From contig CM119372.1 of assembly GCA_051294905.1 (NCBI GenBank), positions 4,590,001 through 4,654,000 of the forward strand: 64,000 nt of DNA. Reading direction: 5' to 3'. Positions 1,172-64,000 of this stretch are shown here, piece by piece (position 1 is the first letter of the stretch; each line of letters opens with the position of its first letter). This stretch comes from Botryllus schlosseri (lineage: Eukaryota). The position numbers and the translations under genes were made by a program. Below the pieces are notes generated by a model that worked only from the letters and a program-made list of their open reading frames with translations, did not search any database and was not told the origin of the DNA.

Positions 1172-4100
1172 ATGCTTAGAAGAAAAGTGCGCATCGCTCT
1201 AAAGCGTCTAGCTTGCGTTGCGTTAGTTTGTAAGTTTCTGCTGTCGTCCGGAATATTTGACGAGGTCTTGTCTTACCTGAACAATATACACAGCGCGCAA
1301 GATTTCATACTGGATAGCCCTACCGAGGGACGCGATGGAATTGCGCACGGCGCCTCTAGAAAGCGACTGCTCGAGTCGCTAAACCCCGAGACTTGCGCCG
1401 ATGTGCCCAAGCGACTGGTCGGGAAAGTGTCTCACGCTAAAGACCCGCCTGATATGAGAATAACCGAGCTTGTTAATAATGAAGTGACGGACGGTTCTTA
1501 CGAGCCCGGAGACTGTAAATCGCGCTGTCGCGTGGCTATTATAGTGCCTATACGCGGGCGTGAAAAAAACCTCCGTCATATGCTGGCTCATATGCACCCG
1601 ATTTGGCAGCGGCAAGAGCTGAGCTACACTGTGTTCACGATCACCCAAGCGGGAACGCGTACTTTCAATAAAGCAAAGCTGATGAACGCCGGTTTCAAAG
1701 AAGCTAGATCGTGTACGAAACTACGTTATTCTGTATTGGTACAGTCATCGACGACAGATCGCTATACCGGTGTCTATTACGTCACACAGCGCGTGATTGT
1801 GTCATGCTGTGGACGACCGAAAGTTCTCAGCTGTTCCAAATTGTATCATTTAGATTTATAGCTACACAGTATTGTCCAAAATATTCTTAATAATCCAAAT
1901 ATCGAATTCGCAAAACTTGGGAATTCAATTAAATTCCTAGTCGAAAATAAATACAACAAACAGAGCTCATTCCCAAAAGCAGATTCAACAACTGAAAAAT
2001 TTCCAGCTTTTCAAGATTAGATTATAATTAGTGTTATAGCTGCACAGCTTTTTTCCAAATTTGACTAGAATTAGACTTGTTGAATTCGCAAAAAACTTGG
2101 ACGTTTCGCGCCGTACGGTTGGCGGAAAACCATAAATTCGATTAGAAGTAAAATTGAAGCATAGAAAAATTTCACAAATTAGATTCGATCTTGGTCGCGG
2201 GCAATTTTGCTTTAATTAGAGAAGTTGAATTCTAGTTGTAACAGACTGGCGGCCGTTCACATGTTTCGTCGGTTGTATTATTAATGATGCTGACGCACTA
2301 TCGGCAAACATGGAAAGTGACCTCTCTCTTGTCTCCGTCGATGATTTTTGAAAGGTATTCATTCTTTTCGTAATGCGTCCCTGTCCACAGTACAGGAGTT
2401 AAGTTAAACCAAGGCTACTCAGCGTTCGACCGCGGTACAAATGCGAATATTTCCAACGCAGAATCCGGACCTTATCCGTCTTAGCATATGCTGAGTTTTT
2501 TTTAATGTAACCAAATCTAATATCGTTGATGTGCTAAAAGAATGGCCTGCTTACAGCTGCGAGTCAGCGTTTTCGATTCACGAACTTTGGAGAGAATAGA
2601 TTTCGCGTCTGTACGACAAGTGAGAACATTCGCCACTCCCACCGACTCGCTCGCAACACCTTCTTAGAACCAAGACGGAAATAACCATCAAAATGTCAAT
2701 TCACGCACTAGCTAAGTATCCAACTAACAGAACAATAAATTGAATAATATATTCATATTGAAATAAACCGGAATATTTTCGGCAGACACTCGTCCGTAAC
2801 TCGGGATTTGAAAGGACATTGTGTATCAATATTCGTACACAGTGTTCTTTCCAATTCTCTACTGGGTTCATGACGATTACCCCTGACGAGTGTCAGCCGA
2901 AAATATTCGGGCTTATTTCATTATGAATTTATTATTCAATTGTATATTGAAGTCCTGCACCTCCGAGAGCTCTTTAGAACGATAAATACATTTCGCTTAA
3001 TGGATAATACCGCTTTACCCGAATTGGTTTATAGTTATTACATTTGTACGGCTGTAATGAGAGTTATAACGGTCCTACGCAGATTTTAAACTTTTGTAAC
3101 TTGACCTTTGTTAAAAGTAGTTGAGTACCCTTTGTTTTCAGACTGTCTCGTTATTAAATGATTGCTTCCTGCTTAATACCACCGTCATCCAATTACACGG
3201 GCTTGATCATATTCCCTATTGCAGACGGTCGGTATGACTGCTTCGTATTTCACGACGTGGACGCTCTGCTCGAGGACGACCGTTGTTTGTACTGGTGCGA
3301 TCAACAGAACCCGCGGCATTTGTGCGCGTACGCGGATGTCTTCAATTATCGTGAAGTTTGGTATTTTTCTGCGTGCCGGCGCCCGGGAGGTGAGCTGGCT
3401 TCCAATGTACGAGCTCAAATCGGTTTATCGTAAGATTCCGATGAATGAAATGACAGTTGAAGCAATATTTCAATGAAACACCCACCTTGGCCACGTATAT
3501 AGACGCGTCTAATTCATTGAATTAGAAGTAACAGACAAGCGATAAAAATGAAGTAACATCTGTACGTGTGCGAAATTGATGTCAGACAGAGTTGGGCAAA
3601 TATTGCTGATTTTCCAAATTAGTATTGTAACTACACATTTTTTCAAATTAGATTCGAATTAGCCAGAAATTCAACAAAAATCAAGTTCAATTCATATCAT
3701 ATTAGAATATAAAATAGAATTGCGAATGTACCCAAAGCTTGGCTCGCTCCGCGCTATATACATACAGCGCTCCTGTGGCGTTTTCAGTAATGACCAGAAA
3801 TTTTAGCAACAAAGTTTTTTCCGCGTTATACGTTACCATTAGAATTATAGCCACACGGTTTTTTGGATCTTAACTGGATTTACTGAATTCGCAAAAGAAA
3901 TAACGGAAATCGAGTTCGGTTCGTATCAAATCTGAGTTAAATCTTGCTAGTTTCGCACTATACAGTTTTCCTGTAGCATTTTCCGGAAAACCACAAATTA
4001 GGTTGGAATTGAAATTTTTAGCATAGAAATTTTTCACGTATTAGATTAGAATTAGAATTGGAGCAAAGCAACATTTCACAAATAAGATAAGAATAAGATT

Positions 4101-15214: not shown

Positions 15215-15575
15215 GTAGTTGAATAGCATATTCATATTGAAATGAACCCGAATATTTTCGGCTGACACTCGTCAGGGCTAATCGCCAACAACTAGTCGAG
15301 AATGGAAAGAACATCGTACACCAACAATCATATCACAAAATATGACGTCACCAGCATGAAATGTCGAATACGAGAGCGTTCAACGTACTATTTTAGATGG
15401 TACATGAACTCTTTTTGTTGGCACATCCTTGGCTGGTGTATTTTGATAAAAGTCGACTCGAAGGCACACAAACGAAACGTATTCGAAATGTTCTTTTCCA
15501 TTCTCTACTAGTTGCTGACGATTACCCCTGACAAGTGTCAGCCTAAAATATTCTGGTTCATTTCAGTATGAATAT
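15215..15575. mobile_element. Penelope-like inverted pLTR pair with ORF 3' end on minus strand
   Basis: The minus strand carries FIKIHQPRMCQQKEFMYHLKIV followed by the pLTR and hammerhead; a degenerate plus copy lies at 15490-15575. Confidence 0.7.
15246..15289 (-). ncRNA. Minimal hammerhead motif, intact core
   Basis: Reverse complement reads GCC-CTGACGA-G-TGTCAGC-C-GAAA-ATAT-TC-GGGT, with one stem I mismatch. Confidence 0.65.
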
Positions 15576-16976: not shown

Positions 16977-18933
16977 ATCATGAGTCGGTGTATATGCCGG
17001 AAAACCATCAAGGACAAAAATACGTCACGTCCTTTCCTTTCCGACAAATAAGTCCGCACCTTCGAAGCCCCCCAGAAAATGGTCAAACTCGACGCCCACG
17101 TTATAATCAATGCTTTAGTGCGGCAGGTTCGCGATGCACCCGTGTACAGGCCACCTTTTCGTACTGGTGTACCCCACGTTAGAGAGCGCCGTTCTAAACT
17201 ATGACCAGTCCCTCAAAGAGAAAACGCATGTAATCTTCTCTTCAGGTATAAAGTCCTTTCTTTCAAATCCAATCCCCTATACATCAACATCACCGTGGAC
17301 GTCGGCAAGCCGTCTCAGAGAATGCAAGATTTTATAGATCGCTCCCGAAACCTGTGGTTCTTCAACCAGTGCATCGTGCGGATGCCGTGGAACTTGTGAT
17401 CGCGTTTTAGGACAATTTTACTACACCAACTATGCACTACAGAAAGGAACGACCGCCCCCCCGGTTTGACTTTGAAGTTTTGTTACTTTTTATTCTGTAG
17501 AGCAAGTGCGTCGTCAGTCACTATTGCTCTGATACGCGCTGTTGCCACCGCTATACTTCACGAGAAACTATTCTGTAGCCACTGTTCAGTCAAGTTCATA
17601 ATATATCTCGTTTGAGGCTTTTACTCGTTACCTGTGTACCGTTGAAGACTTTTTTCTATATCATTTCGTCCGTGTCATCAAACCTTGTTCACTTGCGAGG
17701 GATAATTCTAGTAATCTGATTAATGTGGTCTACATTTTCACTTCTGTTATGAGGATGATCTCTGACTTGATATGGACCGGACTTGATGTTGTTGTACTTC
17801 TTTCCGATTCGGAATCCAGTTTTTGCGAATTTAGTAGTTCTGATTCCAATACACTTTGCAAACGACTTTGTAGCTATGATTCTAATATGTTCTAGGTGTC
17901 GAGCTTAGATTGGTGATTGGTTTCATATCTAAAGTGCGCGAATCTTGGTTGGAGACGATCGTGAATACGATGATATTGAGCCGTGATGATGAATCGCAGT
18001 CTATTTGTGCAAATCTATATATAAATTTATATAACGGATCTCAATCTTTGACATTCCGTGACGTCGCCGTATATTCCCTATTCGCGGTCCACCACTGTGT
18101 TAGCAAATCTAAAAACGCGGGGCTGGCGGTTATATTACGTATAGTCCAACGGCTAATCGTATCGCGTTGTGAGTTATAACGCGGAGGGAATACGCTCAAA
18201 ACTGAGTACCACAGATAGACTTGGACGATTAGATAATTGTAGCTGTCAAATTAGACTGATTACAACGTAATGCGGGTCATCTATTTCTAATATAATTCGT
18301 GAAATGTTTCTATGCTTTCATTTTGATTTCTAGTTGTCCGAGTCCGACCACGGTAACTTGCCTCTGCTCAGAGCACGTACAGCGCGGTTATCTGTTTTGA
18401 ATTCGGATTCTATTTCTGTGTGTCGTTATGTTACGACGGATAAACCGTTTCGCACTGTTCGATTTGTCGCAAGTGAAATGTTCTTGCTACCACAAAGGAT
18501 ATAGTGCCCGTTCTACGTCACAATAAAGATAATTCTGTATTATTTCAGCCATGCCTGTTTCGTTGCACTTTGGTCACGACTACACAGATATGTAATTTAC
18601 GACAGCACACGTGGCTTTGTACTATACATGTTTCGTATTCTGCGATGCGACTGGTTTTCCTGTAAACGCTACTTGAAAACTGTACAGTGTTCACTGTGCA
18701 GTAGGGCTCTTCAAAAATGACTTTTTTTTCTCAAATCGTACTGGCTACTTGATAAAATTGTTAGGTTACCTGATTTAAGCCTACACACAAAATTTGATTC
18801 AATTCCAGCCAGTAACCGCTTTGCTACATGAGAAGAAAGTTTCTATTTATTATATAAAAATAAATATTTGAACAGCTTCTTGGAGGTACAGAACTTCAAT
18901 ATACAATTGAATAGTATATTCGTATTGAAATGA

Positions 18934-18977
18934 ACCCGAATATTTTCGGCTGACACTCGTCAGGGGTAATCGTCAGC
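18934..18977 (-). ncRNA. Minimal hammerhead motif, intact
   Basis: Reverse complement reads GCTGACG-ATT-ACCC-CTGACGA-G-TGTCAGC-C-GAAA-ATAT-TC-GGGT. Confidence 0.78.
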
Positions 18978-19228
18978 AAGTAGTAGAGAATTCAAAAGAA
19001 CAGCGTATATCAACAATCGTAACACAAAATATGACGTCACCAGCAAGGAATGTCGAATACGAGTTTTTATTAAAATACACCAGCCAAGGCTGTGTCAACA
19101 AAAAGAGTTCGTGTATCATCTAAAAATAGTACATTAAACGCTCTCGTATTCGACATTCCGTGCTGGTGACGTCATATTTTGTGTTACGATTGTTGATATA
19201 CGCTGTTCTTTTGAATTCTCTACTAGTT

Positions 19229-19272
19229 GCTGACGATTACCCCTGACGAGTGTCAGCCGAAAATATTCGGGT
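19229..19272 (+). ncRNA. Minimal hammerhead motif, intact
   Basis: GCTGACG(19229-35)-ATT-ACCC-CTGACGA(19243-49)-G-TGTCAGC-C-GAAA(19259-62)-ATAT-TC(19268)-GGGT. Confidence 0.78.
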
Positions 19273-22200
19273 TCATTTCTATATGAAGATACTATTCAAT
19301 TGAAAATAAATAATAAAAAAATTTAAAATTTTCTGTTCACCCTATGAAAGTGTTAGGCTGTTTATAGAAACGATGCTCACCAAATTTGGTTCAATTCCAA
19401 CCAGTGGAAGCGGAGTTATTGCCGTCGAAAAATTTGGAATTTGAATAAAATAGTATTTACGGTGACCGATTCTTCGTTTATTTATTTCAATTGTGCTCAC
19501 CGTAGATACTATTTTATTCAAATCCAAATTTTTCGACGGCCATAACTCCGCTTCCACTGGTTGGAATTGAGCCAAATTTGGTGAGCATCATTTTTATAGA
19601 CAACCTAACACTTTCATGGGGTGAACAGAAAATTTTTAAATGTTTTAGTTATTTATTTTTATAAAATAAATAGACACTTTCTTCTCCTGTAGCAATGCGG
19701 CTCCTGGTTGGAATTGAACCAAATTTGGTGTGTAGGCTTAAATTAGGTAACCTAACAATTTTATGAAGCAGCCAGTACGATTTGAGAAAAAAGGTCATTT
19801 TTGAAGACCTCTAGTACAGTGCAGTACAGTGGGAAACGAGCCAAGCTCGCTGTACAGACATTTCCCATTCTCGTGCATATTAGAATTTGATACGAACCGA
19901 ACTTCATTCAGTGTCCTAGTTTTCGCGAATTCAGTAATTCTAGTCATATTTGCAAAAATTACTGTGTAGCTATAATTCTAGTCAAATTTGGAGCAAACTG
20001 TGTAGCTGTAGTTCTAATTTTAATCTGATTTTGAAAAGCTAAAAATTTCTAATTGTCTAGTCTGGTACCATCATCGCAGCTCTTCATTTCATTCCCCGTG
20101 TTCGCGCTACACTTCAAAGTCCGACCATCGCGCAATGCCGTGTATAAGGCGAAGTCTGTTATTTATTTTTATAGCCATGATCACACCTCTACTCTTCGTA
20201 CTTATAATATAACGTGATGTCGGTACTGTACTCTGTTGTGTTTTTGATATGCGAGTTGCTTTTTTTCGTTGCTTCGTGAGAGTTGCGTTTTTTTTTACAG
20301 AATAGAAAATTGTTTCGTATATATGTTCGTGACTGGTTGTTGGTTAGGGTGCATGCTCGTCAGCTTTTTACGGTTGGTGTTAGGTATGAATGTATCTACT
20401 GTCTCTGTACGACAAAAGAAAATTTCATGAGAGTTATAACGGGCCTAAGCAAGTTTTAATCTTTAGCAACAGGACCTTTGCTAATAATAGTTGAGTAGAC
20501 TTGCGCTAGGGAATAGTGGCATTCGGCCAAAAACACACTAAAACGGCCCGTTAACGTAAGCAACGCAATATTATACCTGTGGCACTGTGTGAATAAATTG
20601 ACTGAGAACAGATGCATAGCATACGAAAGCATTTTACCGTAAACGTAAAATGTATTTAAATCATCTCGAAAATCAACACTGCTGGAATCATACTGACCAA
20701 TTCGCTATCGGCAGTACCGTATTCAAATTGCGAAATACATACTCGGACAACGTTAAGTTACACGAAAGCGGATGCGTGAGTGAGAACGCCTCTTTGGCGT
20801 GAGAATACTTCGCACACTCTGCGTAAATGTATTGCAACAACTGTACAACATACAAAAGTCGTGTGTAGAGACAGACCCGGCAGCACAGACATATTAAAAC
20901 ATCTCGAAAACCAATATCAACTCGCCAACGCTTATTGCCGATACATCGTACTTGTAGGCCTACAGTGTATTGTACCGGCGCGGTAGATAGATAACCGGAA
21001 CATTTTACTTTCTACAGTAGGTGTATTACCATAGTCGTTTTCAGTGCTGCAAACGACTATGGTATAACATCGAAAGCAATAGCCCACACGAAAGTCCGGC
21101 AATTGCTGCCTAATGCAACACAGTCTTCTGCACATGGTACCATTAGTCATTTTATCGCGTGCAAATTTGAAAAAGTGTCCTCATTTCAGATTTCCAAAAT
21201 ATGGTAACCCTACGATATACTGAGTATCCGATAAATATTTACCCGCGACAAGATAACAGAGAATTCCGAGCACCAGATTGTGTCGCATTGGACAGCATAT
21301 ACTATGCGCGACATTTACGTCATACCATAGCAATTTACAACGTAGTAGAAAACGTTGTGAATTGCTGATATGTCGTACACATGCATACAGATGAACTAAA
21401 TATTGTCATTTTAAATCTTATGTTTCACATATTGTCGGCCATGACTGAAATAATTTTTTTAAACAAGGCTCGGTTTTAACCATTCGTGAACCCGTGTTTA
21501 CACAACACAACAATATCTCATAACCATTGCAGCTGGAAATTCGCATATAGTTCACAGTGACCACATTTTACCATAACGTTATATTTCCCACTTGTTGAAA
21601 GCTTGTTAAAGAGCATGATAAAACGAACAAAAAATAACAATCTTTAAGGGATAGGCGTAAGGCAAATATCAACGTTGAATGAGTGCCTGGCGCTGTTGAG
21701 CGAATGTACGAGTCAAGTCGGTACAAAATACACACGACACTGCACAGTGCACAGTTATTGTTTCTCAAGGCATTAAACGCCTCAAATGACTCTTAAAAGA
21801 TCGACTTCCTTTATTGCTGTCGTGGAGTTGAATAGAGATATTAAACTTCGTGAGGTTTACGACAAATATATATGTGAACAAGACGCGTGCGAGATTGAGC
21901 TTTAGTTGCAATTCATTAAAACTGACGGGTCAAACACGACTCCGTCAATTTTACGAGTTGTAGAGTTTACTTTTTCGTCTAATGACAATGGAGAAGATAT
22001 TTGTTCTGGCCTTACGCCAGCAAACATGCAACCAAGTATAGCCCTCATCGAATCGAAAATTCTGCGTAAACGCATCCGATCTGCAAACCCGTGAACATAA
22101 CACGACAGCTATATCTCATTTAGAGCCGATATCGATAATTTGCACGTTCACCGATAACCCCGATATATGCAGCCGATATTTAAAAAATATAGCGTCTAGA

Positions 22201-25400: not shown

Positions 25401-28400
25401 TCGGGAGTCCAGCAAAGGTCAAAACACATACATCCGACTCGTACACAGCAGAATTTACGCTGATTTGCAGGACATATTCATCTTGTTTTGTATCGAAATA
25501 GTGTTTTAATGGTCGGTGATGCACATATTGTGGTCGATTTTTGTGTTTGTGACTGTAGTCGAAATTTTATGGTTTGCGGATGGGTTCCCCAGGTTAGTAA
25601 AAGTTGATAACCACTGTCGCATTCCGAAACTCCTCGGTGAATTTCGCATTACCCATCACACTGTTGAATTTACAATGTGTAGTATCGTGTAACCTCCCTT
25701 AGCCGCCGCAGAGCCAATTATAATTTTTATTTATTAAGAAAAATAAAAAATTAAGATTTCAAATTTTTCTGTCAACCCCATGGAATTGTTGAGTTGTCTT
25801 CAAAAACATTTTTGAAGACAACTCGACAATTTCATGGGGTCGACAAAATAATTAGAATTTTTTTTCAATTTTGCTTAATATCGGTAAATTAAAAATTTTG
25901 TGGCGGCTTACACTTGTTAGCATTTAACCAAATTTGGTGTGCCACGTTTTTTAGGGTAACCTGACAATTTAATCAGTGAATGGCTGGAATCCGAAAAAAC
26001 AGTTCTTTGTGAACAACCCTACTGTACACGTACAGTGGAAGCGGAGTTATTGCCGTCGAAAAATTTGGATTTGATTAAAATAGTATTTACGGTGAGCAGA
26101 ACTATAATAAATAAACAAAGAATCGGTCACCGTAAATACTATTTTATTCAAATCCAAATTTTTCGACGGCAATAACTCCGCTTCCACTGGTTGGAATTGA
26201 ACCAAATTTGGTGAGCATCGTTTCTATAGACAGCCTAACACTTTCATGGGGTGAACAGAAAATTTTCAAATTTTTCTATTATGTATTTTTATATAATAAA
26301 TAGAAACTTTCTTCTCCTGTAGCCAAGCGGTTACTGGCTGGAATTGAACCATATTTTGTGTGTAGGCTTAAATTAGGTAACCTAACAATTTTATCAAGTA
26401 GCCAGTACGATTTGAGAAAAAAAGTCATTTTTGAAGAGCCCTACTGTGCATTCTCATTGACCACGGTTAAAAAGGCTGTCAGGCGACCAGCACCAAACCC
26501 TTTTGTTCAACATACAACAACAACAACCTGTCGTATCGCTCCACGCTGGCCAGCTTCGATTTCCCGTCGTACCCGCCAACACAGTAGACATGACCGCCCA
26601 AGGCCGCCATACGATGCTGCCGCCGGCCCTTATGCAGCGATGCTCCCCTCACCCAGCTGTTCAGATGTGACTGAAAGAGAGAACAGGTCAGGTTTATTCA
26701 CAGGGATTGCCGCAATGATTCGACTATACTCGAATCTGAATCGAGTATTAATCCTAATGATTCAATTCTAGTAGTAAGATATAATGTCGTTCGAGCACTG
26801 GAACGATACGCTACTTGCCACTGTAACTCTTATAACAGTTAATTTATCAACGAAAATTATAGTTTCGATACTATTTTACACTGTGTAAGCCTGCAAACCT
26901 TGATTGATCATTGCGTACGAAGCATGTTGTTCGAAACACAAACAAAGTGTAATTAAATATTGGCGTTATTTTATTTGTGGTTGCGTAAAACGCATATATT
27001 TCGACTTTAAACGTCATTAATACAGCTGCGATGTCATAACGCGTGATACTCGACTCGAAGAGAATCGTCGAGAGTGTGAAATGTTGTGATGGCGATGCCC
27101 TTTTGTGATACGCTTTATCAAAACATACGCATAGTTTTATCGCACCTGCGAATTCTACGTTACCATTCAAATATAGTCAACGGATTTTTGATTGTCAATA
27201 TTCGATATCCGCGCACATTCTTTATCGCGAGCGCCGAATAGCGCGATTTAACAATGGAAAACGTAAAGCCGGGAATAGCACGCGCGGGCATTGTGCATTG
27301 TACACCACCAATCGTGGATGACGCATACAAGGTTAACTGATTCGGTTAATGGCTAGTTTCATGTCACGATTTCAATTATTGCGCCAAACGTAATCTATGG
27401 CTCAACTGAACATAGCGGAATTGGCCATTATGAATTAGACTAATTAGAACGCAATGCCGCTTATATAATTCCAAACGTTTCTACGCTCAAATCCAATTTC
27501 TGGATTTCCCGAAAATGCGGACTTGAAAAACTAGATAATCCGAGTTGCCTAATTAAACTAATTTAGAGCAAAATGCCGGTAATGTAATTGTAATCTAATT
27601 TGTGTAATGTTTCTACGCTCTAATTTTAATTTTAACCGAATTTCTGCTTTTCGTAAGACTTGGAAAACTAGATAATTCGAGTTGCCTAATTAAACTAATT
27701 TAGAGCAAAATGCCGGTAATGTAATTCAATCTAATTTGTGTAATGTAATTCGGGATTTATTTCAATGCCAGAGTTTTTGCAAATTCAGCAATTCTTATTC
27801 GAATCTGATTTGGAAGAAAATCGGTGCAGCTATAATTCTAATTCCAAACAAATTTTAAAATGCTTGAAATTATCTAGATTATCTATTTGCTAACACCGCT
27901 CCTAAGACGCAACCCGCACAACGTATAGCAAGCGCTCACCTGATACAGCCAAACATCTTTCGCGTGGATTTTCCCGCCGCTGAGTATAATACTGTTCCCG
28001 AACGAAGTGACTGCGTATTCCGCTTTGGTGTAGGCCGGAATTTTGGCTAGCTGGGTCCAGGTCTGCGCGACCGCGTCGTACGCCTCCACGTAGGGCATGT
28101 TGTAGCCGCCGTCTCTGTCGCAGCCGCCCACGATCACGACAGCCTCGACGCAGCCCGTCGAGCGCCGAGGTCGGGTGCGCGCGCTGTTGGATTCGTTTAC
28201 GGTGCCTGAGAGTTGGACAATGGACATTAGACAACTATAGACATTTTCACCTTTTCCATATCATGATCAGAATTAGAATTACAGCTACACAGATTTTTTC
28301 CACAATAGATTTTGATTCGAATAATAGCTTCACAGTTTTGCCCAAATTATATTATTATTATAATTACTGAATACGCAGAAACTTTGAAGTACGTGCGTGC

Positions 28401-31400
28401 ACTAGGGCTCTTCAAAAATGACTTTTTTTCTCAAATCGTACTGGCTACTTGACAAAATTGTTAGGTTACCTAATTTAAGCCTACACACAAAATTTGGTTC
28501 AATTCCAGCCATTAACCGCTTTGCTACAGGAGAAGAAAGTTTCTATTTATTATATAAAAATAAATAATAAAAAATTTGAAAATTTTCTGTTCACCCCATG
28601 AAAGTGTTAGACTGTCGATAGAAACGAGGCTCACCAAATTTGGTTCAATTCCAACCAGTGGAAGCGGAGTTATTGCCGTCGAAAAATTTGGATTTGATTA
28701 AAATAGTATTTACGGTGACCGATTCTTTGTTTATTTATTATAGTTGTGCGATTGTTCGACGATTGGAGTATTTGGTTGTATTAAGGTAAGCATCGTATTG
28801 TGAGGCGTGAGCCCTTGCGATGTGTTGACCCTTACATATTTAACCAGACTTTCCAATCACTCTCACACCCAGGACGAGTATGGCCGCCAGGCTTTCATAG
28901 TCCGAAACCGGGATCTGAAACCGCTTGACGGGGCAGTATCCCAGGCACAAGTATGGTAGCGGAGGGATATGCGGCCACTGACGCACCCCTCCAAAGCCTG
29001 CTTGTGCCAGCTCTTTGGAGCCAACAGGGCAGGGTTTTTTCGCCGGGTTCTCCGGTTTTTTCCCGCAAAACCCCTGTTGGTCGCACCGTATACCCGAAGA
29101 GTAAAATTAAGAAGAAAAAAGAAGACGAACCGTAGTAAACATGGGTTCTTCGTGTCCTTTTCGACACCTAGTAACCCTATTACCATCGGGGAGTGCCTAC
29201 AGCTGGGTGGAATATCTCAGCTGTAGTCACAACTATCCCCACGGGGGGAGGTTGGCTGTGGCCCCTCCAGACCCCTAAAAAAATGAGCATCGTTTCTATA
29301 GACATTAGACAGTCTAACACTTTCATGGGGTGAACAGAAAATTTTCAAATTTTTTATTATTAATTTTTATATAATAAATAGAAACCTTCTTCTCCTGTAG
29401 CAAAGCGGTTAATAGCTTGAATTGAACCAAATTTTGTGTGTAGGCTTAAATTAGGTAACCTAACAATTTTGTCAAGTATAGCCAGTACGATTTGAGAAAA
29501 AAAAAGTCATTTTTGAAGAGCCTTAGCGTGCATACAAGGACGCACCCAATATATGATATTTTCTTGTCTCGAGGAGGATTTGCTGACAGTCCGGATTACC
29601 CGCGATCATCTCGTCGCATTCAATGTCATTCATAAAGTAGCTCGGATGGATCAAAGGCAGTCGGACGTAGGACAAAATTTCAGCCAACTCGCGGGATCTG
29701 TAAGGCAGTAAAATAAAGCGTGCTGGAGTTGAAAATTTTCTGTGCGAATCCACAAGCGGGGCTATATGAAGGAGCTTCCTGCCTTACCGTGATTCGATAT
29801 CGTGTTGGATCCATCTTTTGACCGCTTCGTATACCACTTCCTCGCGCGGTACATTTATGGCGTCGTCCATGATATATTCGACGATCCGATGTTTTGGTAG
29901 CTCCATGAACTCTTCATGCTGTCACGAAAATAAAGCTCAATGGTACGGCACCTATCTTAAAGATAAACTCTGGAGATTGTGCTACGGCGTGCAGGCCCCC
30001 GTTTACATAATATATTCGTATCGACATAAACCTAAATATTTTCGGCTGACACCCGTCAGGGGTTAGATTTCATCTTCGAAATACGATAGTTGATATACAA
30101 TGTTCTTTCCAATTCTCTACCAGCTGCTGACGATTACCCCTGACGAGCGTCAGCCGAAATATTCGGGTTCACTTCAGTATGAATATATTATTCAATTGTG
30201 TATTGCAGTTCCGCAGTTCCAAAAAGCTCTTCAAATAAATTCTTCTATAGCAGTTTATGTATATAAGTGCCACTGTGATTATGGCTACGTGGGAAAAACC
30301 AAACAACGTTTGCAGGACAGTATAAAATAGCATGTCGCTAGATTAGAACACGCGCGTCACGCTCGGTGAAAGGCTTGATTCAGAACAAGCAAATGTCATA
30401 AAAGTCTGCCATTGGCAAACATTTGTTGGATAATCCTGTTTGCGCGAAAAATTATCGAGACGTGTTGTCGGTAGATGTCGTTCACACTTTCATTTGGGTG
30501 CCTTGAAGTCGACTTTTATCAAAATACGCCAACCAAATCTGTGCTTACAGAAGGAGTTGTGTTCCTTCTAAGAACAGCACATTGAGCTTAAGCGCTCTCT
30601 TCGCCCCGATTATTCGACATTTCATGCCTGAGTTGATATGCAATGTTCTTTGCAATTCTCTACAAGTTGCCGACGATGACCCCTGACGAGTGTCAGCCGG
30701 AAATATTCGGGTTCATTTCAATATGAATATACTGCACTACTGCAGTGTTCATTTGTAAATTCTTCCATGGTAAATCCGCATTTTCCAGAGTTCTAGCGTC
30801 ATCTAACGGAAAAGCTCACACTCACTCGGGTCACATCAGAAAACCGTTCCGTGATCATAACAGATGCCTTTCGGTGCAAATCGGCGAGCGAATGTGCCTC
30901 AGCGAAGTCTTTCATTCTTATGCAGTTACACGGGTCCAGCTGCGCTTCGAGGAAGCGGCTACAAGCCTCGGTAAGGGGATTGATCTGAAATAGATCGTAT
31001 ACAAGTGAGACATATAAATAATTTATCTATTTGAAGATGATATTTAAAAGTCAAACTTTTGGTGGCTATTGAACACAACGAACAGATCATCATCATTGGT
31101 ACGCTTGTAAATGAGAAATAACATTGAAATGGTGCGCACATTAGTCATAAATAGGTAAATATCGCATTCGTTTTTAGAAAGTATCTCATCAATATGTTTC
31201 AGGCCCCGGGGGCGGGAAAGTTATAAGACACATATGGAAGGTGGTATCCGAACTAAGAATTACGCCCACCATATGCTGTGAAATTCGACTGTACGACGCC
31301 GAAAGTCGTAATAGGGATAACTTAATTCGACCATTGGATAGTAAATTCAGACCAAAGTGAAAACAATCAGCGTTGCTACACTCAAATACCTACTTGAGTA

Positions 31401-53400: not shown

Positions 53401-56400
53401 GCGTTATTTGTATATAATTCACATTGCAAGTGGATTATTTTTGTAAACGCCGTAACCCGTCCTGGTGATGGATTGCCGCAAATTTTCAAAGACACCCGTA
53501 GATTGCCAAGTCACGTTGTCTCTCTGCCAAAAGTAGGTTCTGGAATTGCTCGGTTCCGCGACTGCCAACGACGCCACCGCCTCTGTTTTGGATAGTAATC
53601 AATACGGGCTAGACGGAATCTCGCCTGTCACGTGCGCGTTTCGAAAATGTGCTTCCCAATATTTTGTTATCTGATGTAGCGAAGAGCCGTCAGACTTGTA
53701 GAATTGGATAATTCTAGTTGTCTTATTGAACTAATCAGAAAAAAAGGCCGGTAATCTAATTCTAATCCAATTTGTGAATCACTTTTATGCTGTAATTCTA
53801 AATATCTAGGCCTACATGGGAACTGTATAGTAGGGCTCTTCAAAAATGACTTTGTTCTCAAATCGTACTGGCTACTTGATAAAATTGTTAGGTTACCTAA
53901 TTTAAGCCTACACACAAAATTTGGTTCAATTCCAGCCAGTAACCGCTTTGCTACAGGAGAAGAAAGTTTCTATTTATTATATAAAAATAAATAATGAAAA
54001 AATTGAAAATTTTCTGTTCACCCCATGAAAGTGTTAGGCTGTCTAGTTTCTATAGAAACGATGCTCACCAAATTTGGTTCTATTCCAACCAGTGGAAGCG
54101 GAGTTATTGCCTTTGAAAAATTTGGATTTGAATAAAATAGTATTTACGGTGACCGATTCTTTGTTTATTTATTATAATTGTGCTCACCGTAAATACTATT
54201 TTATTCAAATCAAAATTTTTCGACGGCAATAACTCCGCTTCCACTGGTTGGAATTGAACCAAATTTGGTGAGCATCGTTTCTATAGACAACCTAACACTT
54301 TCATGGGGTGAACAGAAAATTTTAAATTTTTTTATTATTTATTTTTATATAATAAATAGAAACGTTCTTCTGAAGCAAAGCGGTTACTGGCTGGAATTGA
54401 ACCAAATTTTGTGTGTAGGCTTAAATTAGGTAACCTAACAATTTTATCAAGTAGCCAGTACGGTTTGAGAAAAAAAGTCATTTTTTAAGAGCCCTACTGT
54501 ATAGTGCGCAACGAGCCAAGCTTGCTGCGCAGACACTTGCTATTCTCGTGGTTATGTGATTTAACCCTAGTATACACTTTGCGAATGTGAATTTTTCTTG
54601 CCAAACCAATTAAATAACTCTCTCACTATTTCTGGCAATAGATCGTCGCCAAGGGGTGCCACCGCCGACCCTGAAATATCCACGCTAACGTCGAACGCCA
54701 ACCTCTGTTCGTGCTGCGCAATCCTGGCGATGGTCTGCGCCGATCCCGAATACAGGGTGTACGTTACCGCCTTGGTACGTTTTGCGCTGTTGTATTTTGT
54801 GTGGCTGATGTCACACATCGATTTGTTCCTGCGCAGAGAACGCTACGCGCCATGCTGGCTTACACGCAGTGCCTTTGTGTCGCCGATGTGAGCGCGTTTC
54901 GGAAGATCTTGTCGCCTGTTGTCGAGACTATTTTGTTGCGATGTGCTGACAGCACTAGGTGAGTGTTTATATACACAGTATAATTGTCTTTTACTGACCT
55001 CTACTTGAAATACGTGATCACACCATTGTCAACATGTCGATGGTTCCCAACCCTTTTCGACTCCTCCCCTCCTTGTCAAGCTCGCACAAATTTTCGCCCC
55101 TCATATCTACGGATCTGGAAAAAGACATAAACGGGAAATTTATCCACCCGACTCTGATCGCTGCTGAATCGACTAAAAAAGGTCATTCTTTCCGAGTACG
55201 TGCTCGGAAAACCGATTTCCGCGTGCAGAACTAGCCGTGGTAATTGAATATATGTTGCCGGACTGAATACAGATTTTAAAATACTTTCGTAAGAAGCGTT
55301 TATTAGCTCGAAGAACTTTTCGTGTGATCCTTGTTAAGAGATACCGGTTAAGTTGAATGCAAGATCAAATGATGTATTGTGCCGCTGTATATGAATGACG
55401 AATTTTCATGTCTTGCAATGTCACATTTCGTGTTACGACTGTTGATATAGGCTTACAAAGTTCTTTTGAATTCTCCTCTAGTTGCCGACGATTACCCCTG
55501 ACAAGTGTCAGCCGAAAATATTGATTTTTTTTTCAATACGAATACTTTATTTAATTGTACATTGAAATTCTGTACCTCCGAAAGTCTCTTGAAAAAGAAC
55601 TCGATATCAAATAAACCATCATCGAAATCTCGTACTGCTCTTACGCATACGCGGATGTTTTCTTTTTGTGTATTATTTAACTAACAACAGGTTATTTCAA
55701 GAAAATTTAGTAATTCCAGTGTTGTTTTTGACGCACGGCTCAATGCGGCGATACTGATTTCTTGCATTTTGACGTCAGACACCTCCGCAAATGTCTTCGG
55801 GAAACGGACCGCATTCACGTGATTGTGTTGACGCAATTTTTTGTGCAATTGGGTGTGTCGTGGTGTGTGGCTATTTGTGATCGATGGCAGTCATTATTAT
55901 GTAATGTTCCGCACTTCGTAGCGTCGGAGTTATATTCCAAAACGTAATATATTCACGTCCCTCACGCACAGATCGCTATGTGTCTAATAATGCAATAATA
56001 ATATCTCATGAGATGTAATATAATTTTTTTTACATCATCGGAATCCGTCAGACTCACACCTTCCATCTCTTGCTTTTCAGACGTGCCTTACAACTGTCTG
56101 TGAGTACGATCATGGAACTATGCAATGGTCAATCCGGGGAACTGGCCGTGGGCAAGGAAATTTCTGCGGGCACCGGTATTGCGTTTGGGATATTTGTTTG
56201 TTGTGCTGTGTAATATATCGCGACGATCCGTTACATGTTATCTTATGCGCCTTATGCGAAATCCCAACATGATCTGCATCTTCATCAGTGGTAATGTCAT
56301 GCTGGCTTGGTCATGGTCACCCTAGTTAACACAATGGCTTGATTGTGTTTGACTCGATATCCTAGATGCTATATGCCAGCGGTCGGGAACCTGTGGCTCG

Positions 56401-59400
56401 CGAGCCATATATGGCTCTTTTGGGTATAAGATAAGGCTCTTTTTCAAATAAATATTTTTTTTTACTGAATTGATCAATATCGCAGCAACTGGTTAGTAAA
56501 TTTTCATCACGACCACAATAATTATTCTCGTGAGCGTATAAACATGTCTTTGAGAGGTAAAGAAAATGCCGTCTTCAGGGTTAGGGGCTCGGACAGCCCT
56601 TTTCAAAATCCCCAAATTGAAGTTACTGTCGCGCCGGCGACCAATATCACTCGCGAATTCGATGTACCTGACCCGAAATCTTGGATTGCACGATACGTTG
56701 ATTGATCAAAGAGAATAGCAGAAATGGTGATGCCCATAAATGACAACGTAGTTATCAAATATAGCCTATATACGCACCGTTTTCCCGATCTACTGCGCGA
56801 AATGAACTGCCGTGGAAGTGACATTCACAATTACAAACAACGCCATATCCACGTTCTTGATTGGTGTGTCGCTTTGTGACACCAGCGATAAAATGTAGGC
56901 ATGTAGCGCAACGTTATATGTTCTCGCCAAATACTTTCAGAATTGAGAAGTCGATCAGTATTTAGATTTTCGGAATCAATGCAACAGTTACATTCGGTTC
57001 ACATCAGTTATTATAAATTCTAAGCTATTCACGATGAATTGCGGTATCCATGGCGAAGTTTGGCCCGTCTGTGCCTTACCTATCGCATTGGGCTGTACTT
57101 TCGAATAATAAATATGCAAGTCGCCTAATTTTGGGAGGAAAATGTTCAAAATTCAGTCATTCATTAACATCGATAGAAAATACCAATAAAACTAGCAATA
57201 GTAATTGAAATTTTCACAATTTTCGTTCACTCATCGTAGCGACAGGTGACGAACTGCCTCGCTTGCCTCCCCTGACCCCATGTCACTGATGTATCACACC
57301 TTACATTGGGTATATACGGCTGTAGTGATCATGTTTGGCTCCATTTACGCATGTGATCATGGGTTGTCGCATTTAAAAGCAGCATCACGACGAAGCTACG
57401 TTCTCGCAACTCAAATTTCGCATGCTTGAATGCGGTTACCAGCATGATTAGTACGAATTTTTACAGATAAAATGAGGCGCACACGACGAATCCCCAATGT
57501 GCTACCATGACGTCACAAATTTTCAATTGTGACGTAACAGTTGATCGACATGTATGGCTCTTCGGGAGTTGAAATGGAAAAAATTGGGCCAATATGGCTC
57601 TTCGGACGAAAAAGGTTCCCGACCACTGCTATATGCTATCCATTATAGTGTGGATACAGTGTTGTGGCTCGAGTCCAAGTTCAAGTCACTTGGTTCTCTG
57701 TTCAGTAGGAGTGCTCTAAAATGACTTTTTTTCTCAAATCGTACTGGCTACTTGATAAAATTGTTAGGTTACCTAATTTAAGCCTACACACCGAATTTGG
57801 TTCGATTCCAACCAGTAGCCGCATTGCTACAGGAGAAGAAAGTTTCTGTTTATTATATAAAAATAAATACCCAAAACTTTGAAAATTTTCTGTTCACCCC
57901 ATGAGAGTGTCTATAGAAACGATTTTAACCAAATTTGGCTCAATTCCAACCAGTGGAAGCGGAGTTATTGCTGTCGAAAAATTTAGATATGAATAAAATA
58001 GTATTTACGGTGGGCACCACTATATTAAATAATTAAAGAATTGGTCATTGTAAATACTATTCATTAAAACCGCCAGCCTTATCAGTCTCATTTTTAATTG
58101 AATTGAAATTTTCAGCGTTGCTTTGCCTTGAATACCCAATTCTGACTGCTTTGATCAAAAAATCTGTTGATTACGGCGATGTTTATTGACATTGCACAAA
58201 AAGTCAAAATTTTTTCAAAAATTGTCAAAATTGTCTATGAAGTCAAAATATTTTTGCAACCTGCATTTCGTTGGTGTCGCAGATTCCGTTTTTTAGGTCG
58301 AAGAAATATCCATCTGAAATCGGAAAAAATGTAAATTTTACAAAAACGCGATTTTAAGTTTGATAAAATGGACATACGCTGCGTTAATTCCACCGCGACG
58401 ATATCTCGTCAGCACCTTGAAATATTGGCGACATTAGTTTTTACCGGTCGTTCTTTTGTTTGCAAGAATCACTTGGCGTAGGCGACGTCGATTACTTCCT
58501 GGAGTTTCTCGAATCGGAACGAGCCCCGGACTCGGCGTCTTGGCAGTGGCGGCTAGGACGTCTGAACGTCCTCAACGAACTGTTTAAGGAATTCAAGGAA
58601 AAATTCACGCATCCGTGAGATTCTTCGTCTGGCTTTTGGTGATTGTATCGTGTCTCAATTCGACAAAATTTTAACAGGGAGAGTCACACCGACGGTGCAG
58701 TGTCTGCTAGATTGTCGAAAGTGACCAAGTACACTGCCGACTGTTTGAGGATATCGAAGCATCAGTACGTGGTGAAGATGGCGCACAAAGTGTTTGTTCA
58801 GGTAGCGCGAGTTTGTGACTACATAATGACAACAGTTTAGATCACTCATAAACAAAAGCAAAAAATCGTTCATCTTTTACTGTAACATTACTTCTCCGAA
58901 TTTGCTGTTACCAACTATAGATTTGAAGCCAACGCATCAAGCAATCTTTCTGCAGAGTGATTTACGGAACGACCTAAAACGCTGTTTCCACAAAAAATTT
59001 GCCTTTTCTGTTTTGTCTGAAATTAAAAGCTGTTAACGAGAGAGATGGCTCGGAATTGACGACGAAATGTGGTGTGCTTGAACTCAATCGCGTTGTCTAT
59101 GTTCGCGTTGACACGTGAAGATGGAGTTTTGTGTGCCACCAGCTAAAAAAGTTTGGGAACCACTGATTTAGATAGATCGAAAGAGAGAGAGAGAATCTCT
59201 TGAACTACGGTAGCTGTGTACTGCCTACGATAGCAATCTGATAAAAAAAATGGTGAGGATAATCGACTTGAATATACAATTGGATAGTATATTCATATTG
59301 AAATGAACTCGAATATTTTCGGCTGACACTCGTCAGGGGTAATCGTCAGCAACTAGTAGAGAATTGGAAAGAACATTGTATATCAGCAATCGTATCACAA

Positions 59401-62400
59401 AATATGACGTCACCAGCTTGAAATTTCAAACGGTGACGTCATATTTTGTGATACGATTGTTGATTGACAATGTTTTTTCCAATTCTCTACTAGTTGCTGA
59501 CAATTACCCTTGTCGAGTGTCAGCCGTAAATGTTCATGGCTATTTCAATATGAATATACTATTCAATTGTATATTGAAGTTTTGTACCTCCAAGAAGCTC
59601 TTCAAATAATCGACTTGTTGTTCATTTTCTGCAAACAAAATGAACACCGACAAGTTTTCTACCTGCGCTGCGGCGCATATGAGATATATACTTGACCGCC
59701 AACTTTGACAATCTCATTCCGATTATTTTCACAACGCAGGCAGTCAATTTCGGGAGCAAGGACCCGCAATTCATGAACGTATGCATGCAGCTCCTGCAGA
59801 ACTTGGATTATCCCAGGCTGCGGAAGAGGGTGGCGCAATTTCTACCCGAAGACGTATCGGTGCCAGTGGAATGGTACGATATCGTCTCATTTCTTCTTTA
59901 CTCCCGTATCTATCCGTGTCGAATTCTAGGGGTAATCTGTCGGGGTCGTGCGACGAGCAGAGCGATTGGATCACCGGTCCGGCCGCGATTAAGAGCCCGG
60001 TTTTGGATTCCAACCCGGGGGCCGGCGAGATCGGGATTGCGTCTTCGAGCGTGGCCAGATACCCGTCCTACGTGGTCACGTCTCACAGGGCCACGTTTCC
60101 GTCTCCGAGTCTGGCCGAGGCGTCCATGCAACTGGCGTCGTCGCCGTCGACTAACGAAGAATATGACGAAGGTAGGTTTCTGGCAGTGGGTAAAGTTTTT
60201 TGGGTTCAGATTCATAAGTCAATCTGACTTTTGTAATTTTGACTCGAGTCAAGTCGACTCATTGGTGATTCATCACCGAGTCAAGTCCAAGTAGGTGAGT
60301 AGAGGGTCGAGTCCGGGTCATGGTGTCGTGAATCGAGTCCTATAGTCCAAGTTATTGTATTCACTCTTCGGTTTTGAGTTCAATCCAATTCAACCTAATT
60401 CTTTCAACTCCGCTCAGGTGATACAGAAAGGCTCACATTCATGATACACTAATTTCCATAATTCTTAAAAGTTTCTGACTCTATTTTCCAAGTATCAGGA
60501 CTGATAGACGAAACACCAATCGTGCGGTGACTTCACTATTCTTCGAAGTTACAATGAAATGTATGTCTCGGCCGTCCTAGTCGCGAGTCATATGACTTGG
60601 TTCGAGTTTTTTCGAATTCGGTTATTCTAATTCTGATCTGGTTTGGACAAGCTTATAGTTTTACACTTGTTCATCTCTGGTGACGAAACCTTTGATTATT
60701 TGAATTTTCATGACCGTGACATATTTTGTGTTACGATTGTCGATTTACAATGTTCTTTCCAATTCTCTACCAGTCGCTGACGGTTACCCCTGACGAGTGT
60801 CGGCCGAAAATATACGGGCTCATTTCAATTTGAATATACTGCTCATTTGTGAATTTCGCAGAATTGAACAACATGCATCGAGATGGGATACTTCTGGGCG
60901 GATCGTGCGCGCACCCGCCTACCCCGCCCCCATCGTCGGACGACACCACTAATTTAACGGACGCCATTCAGGTAAGACTGACTCATGACTCTAGTACAAC
61001 GGTACGAATTATGTGGAAAGTTGAAATGTGCACGTTTTATGAAGTTGAAATATGCACGTTTTATGTGACCATGAAGATAATTTGGTATTTTTCAACCATA
61101 CGTATTTCAAGGCACTTTGTGGTGACAATGATGTATTTTGATCATGACCTCACAGTTACGTCATTTCCATTAGCGTGCGTAGTTGGGGTGTTCAAGTTTC
61201 ATCGGCTTGGTTGTCAAATTGTCGGGTTACCTAAAAAAAAACGTCGCACACCAAATTTGGCTCAATTCCAGCCGTTAGATGCCGAGGTCAGCCAGATTGA
61301 AATTTTGGTCATATTTGGAAATAGCAGTGTTATGGTGGCAAATTTAGTCACTACTCAACATGGCCAAAAATCGTATACCCTGAATGGGGCAGGGATGTTT
61401 TTCTACTGTGTGATTTGTATGCTACGTAAGACAAGTCAAGGTCTGTAGGCTTTTTCAGTGAAAAGTTGTATCGTAACTGTAATTCTCATTAGTAAATTTA
61501 CTCTTGGTGGCGAGGAGGGTATGATTTCAGTCTTTGAAAAAAAATATTCGTTTTGCGTCGCGGCATAATCAAATCCTGGGACTACTTTTTGCAGGTCAGC
61601 CTGTTTCGACCGATTCGCAGCGCCAGCCCCGGCGCGGATTACTCCAACGCGAGACCGCCCGTCTTGGACGGGCGTCACCGGGACATCTCGGCCGACGTCC
61701 CGCCGCCCCTGCCCGCCAAAGAAAAGAAAGCGGACCAGACAAAATCCGTTACAGACTCGACAGCGTCACCAAACGCGCGTCGCCAGCGGCCCACGCTGCT
61801 ACGCCTTAGGTCCGAAGTGTCCGCGTTTAGACAGACCACCTCTAACACCATGTCCAAAAAGGCCAGGACGCCGGATTCAGACGCCAGTTCGTCGTGTAGG
61901 GAACGTAGCAGCAGCAGAGAATCAGATTCGTCTTTGGGCAAAAATTCGGACCGGCGGCTCAGCGTTAAAGAGCTGGCCGAGAGCATAAACAGAAAACACA
62001 CCCGGCCCACCGGTCCCGTCCTCAAAAAAGACCCCAAAAATATCACGACACCGCAATCAAAAATGACCCCCGGCCCTGGTTTTGATCGTGACGAGACATT
62101 GTCAAGCACCCTGGACTCGCCCACAAAGCCCCCACCTTTACCGCCACCGCATACAAAGCCCCACCCGCCCGACCCAGACCCGGGGCAGAACCCGAAAAAG
62201 CCTCCGATGCTGCCATCAAAATACGAGAGTCACCCAATCAGCCGTAACATAGCCCGTCGGGGCACTATGGAGCGGTACAAAGAAAGGAAGAGGCTGGAAG
62301 GGTTCGCGAACCACCCGCAAACATTACATGAGGTGCGCACCCCGGACGAACCGCCGGAGGCGTGCCCCGACAAAAGTGCCCCGCCGTTAAATTTGTACAA

Positions 62401-63860: not shown

Positions 63861-64000
63861 GTGATCTGTCTTGCCGTGTTATGTTTCTTTCTTTTTTAAC
63901 ATTTGTTTTTTTACCTTATCACATTGATTTATCCTGGCAGACCAAAGCTTGGACTGTGTTCTGCGCTGTGCAGTTTTTTTCTAAATTATAAGCATACTAG

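Follow-up and report, generated by a model that had tools for sequence, protein, structure and literature searches.

A candidate minimal hammerhead in an abundant Penelope-like element of Botryllus schlosseri, with a proposed, covarying upstream pseudoknot at the place of stem II

The repeat and the element that carries it

The window studied here, i.e. the whole 64,000-nt stretch of contig CM119372.1 of Botryllus schlosseri that was analysed, contains a dispersed repeat whose copy at 19229-19272 (+) raises a simple question: can a sequence that has the core nucleotides of a hammerhead ribozyme, with a single base pair where stem II should be, be read as a ribozyme, and what kind of element carries it? 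Reading the sequence directly, we found ACCC-CTGACGA-G-TGTCAGC-C-GAAA-ATAT-TC-GGGT at 19239-19272 (+). A 30-mer of this motif matched 11 sites of the window with at most three mismatches, as compared to 0 in shuffles (n=100). Using the 165-nt arm of the locus as query, nhmmer returned 19 copies in the window, and a covariance model of the motif gave 19 window matches at E≤1, i.e. 17 at E<0.01 and two weaker ones. An earlier note on this DNA had estimated about 18 copies per 64 kb, which agrees well with the 17-19 copies obtained by nhmmer and the covariance model. Its list of intact and variant copies was also correct within a few bases. Thus, the copies described as intact at 15246-15275 (-), 18934-18963 (-) and 19243-19272 (+) carry no mismatch, while those at 2883 (+) and 59307-59336 (-) carry one each (GGGC, by which one stem I pair is lost, and GAGT, respectively). 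The copies described as variants show U3 with G8 (12568), one A fewer after GAAA (30140) and GGAAA (30683). Across the genome of 495.5 Mb, we counted 2,539 exact copies of the 44-nt motif (control: 0).

These repeats are the 3' or pseudo-LTR ends of a young, very abundant Penelope-like element (PLE). One longer copy (L038) holds a 501-aa open frame, which ends 106 nt before the motif and matches Pfam RVT_1 (L038 3516-5018; E 8.4e-8, 32.6 bits at a cut-off of 29.6). The C-terminus of this frame matches GIY-YIG (PF01541) over the first 28 profile positions only and below the cut-off of 22.6 (21.2 bits, E 3.6e-4), and the frame shows the string VVYEF...YVGRT...R..R..QH. A search of the genome with the L038 protein gave at least 88 matches among those listed (9,051 candidates at first look) and revealed open frames of up to 857-860 aa. 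Seventeen young copies inspected with their flanks (97-99% identical) have one common 3' end and differing 5' cut points, and head-to-head pairs are frequent among them. Tandem copies are spaced by 2,683-2,692 bp, giving a unit of ~2.7 kb. At two tandem junctions (L049 and L050), 106 nt separate the stop codon of one unit from the core box, and the long frame of the following unit starts at the UGA within CUGACGA. Its first in-frame ATG follows the predicted cut by 14 nt. The motif thus occupies the head of the ORF within the pseudo-LTR, as it does in other Penelope elements (PMC11167929).

The architecture of the copies is that of a PLE in further respects. Their pseudo-LTRs arise from partial tandems, and an inverted, 5'-truncated copy lies alongside. 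Moreover, some copies stop at ..CAATTG and others extend for 38 nt more, which corresponds to the optional tail of 30-40 bp on one side that has been described for PLEs in the available texts of PMC8557442 and PMC11167929. The retroelement origin that had been proposed for the repeat is therefore upheld by the RVT_1 frame, the common 3' end, the variable 5' truncation, the tandems and the optional tail. The element itself is an ordinary, very successful PLE.

At the locus in question, two 5'-truncated copies of this element lie head to head:

18857-18865: left target-site duplication AAAATAAAT; the same 9-mer stands at 19303-19311, and its final T could be the tail's
18866-18903 (-): optional 38-nt PLE tail, on the left arm only
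18904-19063 (-): left arm, an inverted 5'-truncated PLE 3' end that bears the antisense ribozyme motif at 18934-18977
19064-19302 (+): right copy, a 5'-truncated PLE 3' end with the final 24 RT/EN codons and the stop, followed by the pseudo-LTR with the ribozyme motif
19135-19137 (+): RT/EN stop codon TAA
19303-19311: right target-site duplication AAAATAAAT, matching 18857-18865

The antisense motif of the left arm is matched by the covariance model at 18932-18979 with 62.9 bits, and 19065-19302 is matched by many copies at 97-98% identity. The copies in the window are truncated, dead insertions, and the motifs that they bear are passengers. The right copy ends at 19302, and exactly at this end of the insertion begins an unrelated repeat of ~58 nt (19303-19360), which also occurs at 19601-19659, 26231-26289, 28557-28614, 29310-29367, 53984-54041 and 54288-54345 (copies 89-97% identical). 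The Penelope insertion hence seems to sit within or beside this repeat.

The two arms at 18899-19063 and 19143-19307 (165 nt, 96% complementary) and the many copies that occur as (-)/(+) pairs might also be taken for a miniature inverted-repeat or foldback DNA transposon, in which the likeness to a hammerhead would be due to chance. We regard this as vanishingly improbable. The continuation of longer copies into the reverse-transcriptase frame and the variable inner cut points refute it; furthermore, the arms are unequal in length, the ends bear the PLE tail and the motif covaries across families. A comparison of 21 head-to-head insertions, including the one in the window, shows that the inner junction differs at each locus, and several of them have separate target-site duplications of 9-12 bp. 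With their own junctions and their own duplications, these are independent, ordinary Penelope-type insertions. The 409-bp palindrome at 18899-19307, considered as a non-autonomous unit (21 end-to-end loci), was rejected on the same grounds. Six head-to-head Penelope insertions (L013, L014, L018, L023, L024 and L027) have flanks in common on both sides and apparently represent one insertion that was recopied inside another repeat.

A hammerhead layout shared by several families

Having assigned the repeat to a PLE, we turn to the motif itself. Numbered as a hammerhead, the right copy is composed of the following parts:

19229-19234 (+): GCUGAC, putative pseudoknot 5' strand replacing stem II; covaries with 19252-19257 across families
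19235-19238 (+): 4-nt linker GAUU, of the same length in every family read
19239-19242 (+): stem I 5' strand ACCC, pairs with 19269-19272
19243-19249 (+): core box CUGACGA (C3-A9); its UGA is the stop that opens the next unit's long frame
19250 (+): G10.1, with its partner C11.1 at 19258
19251 (+): single bridging U
19252-19257 (+): GUCAGC, putative pseudoknot 3' strand, pairs with 19229-19234
19258 (+): C11.1
19259-19262 (+): GAAA (G12-A15.1)
19262-19267 (+): palindrome AAUAUU; stem III possible in a dimer only
19268 (+): C17; the cut is predicted between 19268 and 19269
19269-19272 (+): stem I 3' strand GGGU
19283-19285 (+): where the element has its first in-frame ATG, 14 nt past the predicted cut (from the tandem junctions L049 and L050)

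The core boxes stand in the correct order, i.e. CUGACGA at 19243-19249, GAAA at 19259-19262 and UC at 19267-19268, and both the 4-bp stem I and the palindrome AAUAUU are as the earlier note stated. Another CUGACGA box lies upstream (19230-19236); as a core it was rejected, having neither a G10.1-C11.1 pair nor a usable stem II.

Searching the genome for the pattern TTGAAAAG-N5-12-CGAAA gave 3,142 matches compared to 224 for the control, and two further patterns gave 869 matches (control: 2) and 489 matches (control: 5). Short stretches around the pattern matches were read, revealing four more families of identical layout in this genome. The common order is a hexamer, a 4-nt linker, a 4-bp stem I strand, the core, G, one base, a hexamer, C, GAAA, a palindrome, C and the second stem I strand. 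The families differ as follows:

Window's family: hexamers GCUGAC/GUCAGC; stem I ACCC/GGGU; C3-G8; palindrome AAUAUU
Family G: hexamers ACUGGC/GCCAGU; stem I ACUG/CAGU; palindrome AAGCUU
Sub-line of family G: hexamers UCUGGC/GCCAGA
Family F: hexamers UGUGCC/GGCAUA; stem I AUUC/GAAU
Family A: hexamers (U)GUGCC/GGCAC(C); stem I ACUC/GAGU; U3-A8; AAG-U-CUU
Family B: hexamers as in the window's family, with one extra U; U3-A8; palindrome AAGCUU

Families G and A are separate PLEs, which have their own endonuclease ends, with 45-55% protein identity to that of the window's family. Within the linker (19235-19238 in the window copy), the first base G and the third base U are conserved to at least 90% across families and may be engaged in a tertiary contact. 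Other pattern matches do not parse as hammerheads and were rejected, i.e. TTGAAAAG-CGACACCG-CGAAA, the abundant TTGAAAAG-GGGGCGATGRGT-CGAAA and the match at L073. The TTGAAAAG-GGGGCGATGRGT-CGAAA repeat makes up the bulk of the 3,142 pattern matches, and two copies of it stand in tandem 332 bp apart at L060 (G000:C1:1181598-1182174).

For the comparison of families, we used an alignment (A4) of 43 rows, 41 of them distinct. Core, spacer and CGAAA were the sole criteria for including a row, irrespective of its upstream bases. Of 45 small loci (L051-L095), the alignment leaves out the duplicates L053, L056, L069, L070 and L078, family B (L055, L056) for its extra base, L054, L082, L085 and L091 for their non-homologous upstream part (5'-truncated), and L073 and L057-L060 as not being hammerheads. 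In the 43 rows, which represent five families, conservation is at least 90% for each of the core bases U4, G5, A6, A9, G12, A13, A14 and A15.1. Among the 41 distinct rows, C3-G8 appears as CG in 20, as UA in 10 and as UG in 2, and is unpaired in 9, while G10.1-C11.1 is GC in 39. Stem I was counted on an alignment of 53 matches fitted to a model that contains stem I, a bias in its favour; here, 89.4% of cells are paired (slid controls 12-39%) and each of the four pairs shows changes in both strands. Stem III has no hairpin and is represented only by the 6-nt palindrome AAUAUU, or elsewhere by AAGCUU or AAG-N-CUU, so that its helix needs two copies. Dimeric PLE hammerheads have reportedly been described by Lunse et al. 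in 2017. The stretch from A9 to G12 leaves room for only 9 nt, in which no stem II hairpin of at least 2 bp is found.

The core bases are thus fixed across related PLE families, whereas stem I, stem III and the C3-G8 pair vary by compensating changes. This comparison supports a reading of the motif as a type I 'minimal' hammerhead. Curated models do not recognise it: at the gathering threshold, Rfam gave no hammerhead match and no family at its threshold in the whole window, and at E≤10 over 18800-19500 again no hammerhead match. A genome scan with RF00163, in which 73 of 70,463 candidates were scored, gave none above the cut-off of 34, the best one (22.8 bits) lying elsewhere. Sub-threshold Rfam matches to WsnRNA46 and MIR8742 at 19007-19199 are artefacts of the long hairpin formed by the inverted arms.

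Pairing of the stem II loop with the flank of stem I

The one-pair stem II of the earlier note is correct for the hairpin, in which only G10.1-C11.1 forms, but the pairing of 19229-19234 with the loop had been overlooked. Six of the seven nucleotides of the stem II loop (19252-19257) are complementary to 19229-19234, which lies 4 nt 5' of stem I. In the 41 distinct rows, many of them picked for a mutated loop hexamer, 81.7% of these pairs are formed, as compared to 26-39% when the partner strand is slid by 1-3 columns. Both strands vary at each of the six pairs, and the covariation score is 0.393 versus 0.149 in shuffles, with none of 500 shuffles reaching 0.393. As judged from this comparison, at least four PLE families of the genome show covariation in the putative pseudoknot, in stem I and in the C3-G8 pair. 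Covariation hence demonstrates the pairing, and we infer its role as stem II.

Rare variants of the loop hexamer were considered separately. The GCCAGA variant has four copies in the genome, each with the partner UCUGGC; as they lie in two head-to-head insertions, they count as two events. Of 39 copies of the window's family with GCCAGC in the loop, 38 have no compensating change, and a further 20 variant copies are mostly uncompensated, with a compensating change in L076 only. Given 2,539 exact copies, such rare variants are expected from random decay. We therefore read the uncompensated ones as the decay of dead copies, which neither helps nor hurts the pseudoknot. In L076, the hexamers are ACUGGU/ACCAGU and stem I is GCUC/GAGC, so that both helices are compensated; two other ACCAGU copies retain ACUGGC. 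This hints at a further sub-family with L076 as its single example.

Our best explanation, which we consider probable, is that the repeat represents the pseudo-LTR end of a young PLE with a minimal type I hammerhead, whose stem II would be supplied by the upstream pseudoknot. The helix between the upstream hexamer and the loop would stack on G10.1-C11.1 in the manner of an H-type pseudoknot; with one bridging nucleotide before the helix and none after it, such stacking is expected. In H-type pseudoknots, a single nucleotide can span the deep groove of a 6-bp helix. Through the 4-nt linker, the outer end of our helix would be tied to that of stem I, and the pseudoknot would thereby hold stems I and II side by side.

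The same pairing could also act as a switch, which silences single copies for as long as neither a second copy nor a protein opens the hairpin. Covariation reveals a selected pairing and does not tell which conformer was selected, and the plain hairpin of 19229-19234 with 19252-19257, which encloses the 5' strand of stem I and the core, is stable (-7.4 kcal/mol). Moreover, a protein-assisted PLE hammerhead is reported in the available text of PMC11167929. We nevertheless judge a switch to be quite improbable. The geometry is fixed in all families (except for one extra U in one of them), as is needed for coaxial stacking but not for a blocking hairpin, and a ribozyme without the pseudoknot helix would have no stem II. 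A point against our best explanation is that, in the window's family alone, GUCAG can also pair with CUGAC of the core, and this inactive form is the minimum-energy fold of a single copy (-10.5 kcal/mol).

Predicted cleavage and comparison to known ribozymes

Tandem or paired transcripts would be expected to cut themselves after C17, i.e. C19268 in the window copy. The predicted cut would release an RNA of unit length, which would start 14 nt ahead of the AUG. Two RNA runs mapped on the tandem junction L049, X24 (depth ~540) and X22 (depth ~1,400), show no pile-up of read ends at the predicted cut. Most reads (97% in X24 and 69% in X22) continue into unlike flanks; they cover the pseudo-LTR part only, with both strands alike, and the depth over the ORF is 0-6, i.e. 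there is hardly any expression of the full-length element. The unlike flanks and the bare ORF indicate that the reads stem almost only from solitary fragments within other transcripts, in which a dimer-dependent ribozyme is not expected to cut. As the read-end test responds only where a fifth of the depth ends at a single site, and the reads come from solitary fragments, these data rule out efficient single-copy cleavage only.

The closest relatives are the minimal hammerheads of PLEs (Cervera & De la Pena 2014, PMC4209133). They too are of type I, lie in the pseudo-LTR, have a stem I of 4-5 bp, a conserved G10.1-C11.1 pair and a U3-A8 core variant, and use a palindrome for a stem III that forms in a dimer. 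Their genomic arrangement is also alike: motifs may be paired on opposite strands at a distance of 100-700 bp, and truncated solitary copies are numerous. The published PLE hammerheads cleave poorly in vitro and are thought to act as dimers (PMC4209133), a model into which the palindromic stem III of our motif fits, as the earlier note had assumed. The difference concerns stem II. In the published examples, it is a long hairpin of 6-8 bp whose 5' end carries one unpaired base, whereas the window motif has a single-pair hairpin and takes a helix strand from upstream of stem I. The PLE hammerheads tabulated in the available part of File S2 of Craig et al. 2021 likewise all have hairpin stems II, of 3-9 bp, unlike the window motif.

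These comparisons also bear on the possibility that the motif descends from a hammerhead that no longer cuts, its fold and its core bases now being retained for another step in the life of the element, e.g. reverse-transcriptase binding, a promoter function or the start of translation. We consider this unlikely. It would agree with the one-pair stem II, with the lack of an RNA read end at the predicted cut in X24 and X22, and with the low in vitro activity of PLE hammerheads (PMC4209133). Furthermore, catalytic mutants of a PLE hammerhead leave insertion in vitro unaffected and the Anolis RNA-seq has no ends at the cut, as far as the available text of PMC11167929 goes, and PLE clades that are described in the available text of PMC8557442 as lacking canonical hammerheads multiply well. 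Against it stands a core that is fixed while the stems change, across families at 45-55% endonuclease identity. The double change from C3-G8 to U3-A8 also speaks against it, being the very switch that has been described for PLE hammerhead cores (PMC4209133).

A hammerhead in a similar position is found in the Poseidon PLE of Anolis carolinensis (PAc, PMC11167929). According to the available text, the PAc hammerhead also lies at the start of the ORF in the pseudo-LTR, and the element also has an optional tail of 30-40 bp, which is explained there by internal starts of reverse transcription. That text likewise reports no RNA-seq ends at the cut site, and it describes one PLE hammerhead as dispensable for insertion in vitro. 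The two differ in the position of the start codon, which in PAc is located at stem II, 26 bp before the cut, while the ATG of the window's family lies 14 nt after the predicted cut.

The closest parallel for stem II comes from a type II ribozyme found in a metagenome and published in 2011 (PMC3088659). As described in the available text, its stem II consists of one base pair, and it needs a pseudoknot for fast cleavage, which exceeds 1.2 per min in 0.5 mM Mg. This type II ribozyme has an open stem II, a loop that closes stem I and a normal stem III. The window motif, by contrast, has an open stem I, a pseudoknot strand that joins C11.1 directly at its far end and a palindromic stem III, and its host is an animal retroelement. 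The window motif looks like a type I counterpart of this ribozyme, as far as the equivalence of the two topologies can be deduced from the text of that paper. Core helices also form pseudoknots in the non-circularly permuted hammerheads of type SGC, in which, by the available account (PMC10085705), a linker of ~3 nt joins the far ends of stems I and II, as compared to 4 nt in the window motif. Whole blocks are reordered in type SGC, unlike the window motif, which keeps the classic type I order and has only the 5' strand of the second helix displaced.

A literature search that covered full texts and a small part of the supplements found no description of a pseudoknot replacing stem II in a Penelope hammerhead. 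What is known, therefore, is the presence of hammerheads in PLEs; what is new here is a one-pair stem II that is completed by a covarying, putative pseudoknot. The motif passes no curated model and seems one stem short; the stem appears to come from upstream and has been kept over deep divergence. Penelope elements with 'HHR_core only' have been reported to fit no hammerhead descriptor (available text of PMC8557442). Stem-loop descriptors and Rfam models miss the present design, so that the same design may explain these elements. More broadly, and tentatively, a whole clade of animal PLEs could use this undescribed hammerhead with a one-pair stem II and a 7-nt loop held in a pseudoknot of 5-6 bp with the 5' flank of stem I, a type I counterpart of the type II ribozyme; we regard such a wide distribution as possible rather than probable. 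Were it true, Penelope hammerheads may be far commoner than catalogued.

If the RNA cleaves, the set of natural hammerhead topologies in animals would be wider, and descriptor searches would under-count such ribozymes. The motif would then also provide a compact natural system of ~44 nt with thousands of copies in several covarying families. Such a system would be a testbed for how stem II can be replaced by a pseudoknot, and for how a stem III that forms in the dimer only controls cutting beside a start codon.

Two other features of the window were recorded. The region 60001-64000 has a G+C content of 0.47 compared to ~0.40, and two open frames in it (199 and 486 aa) lack a Pfam match. The 229-aa open frame at 1172-1861 (+) resembles glycosyltransferase family 7 in its N-terminal region (beta-1,4-galactosyltransferase type; E 3.4e-29), which points to an animal genome, and is probably an exon of a host gene.
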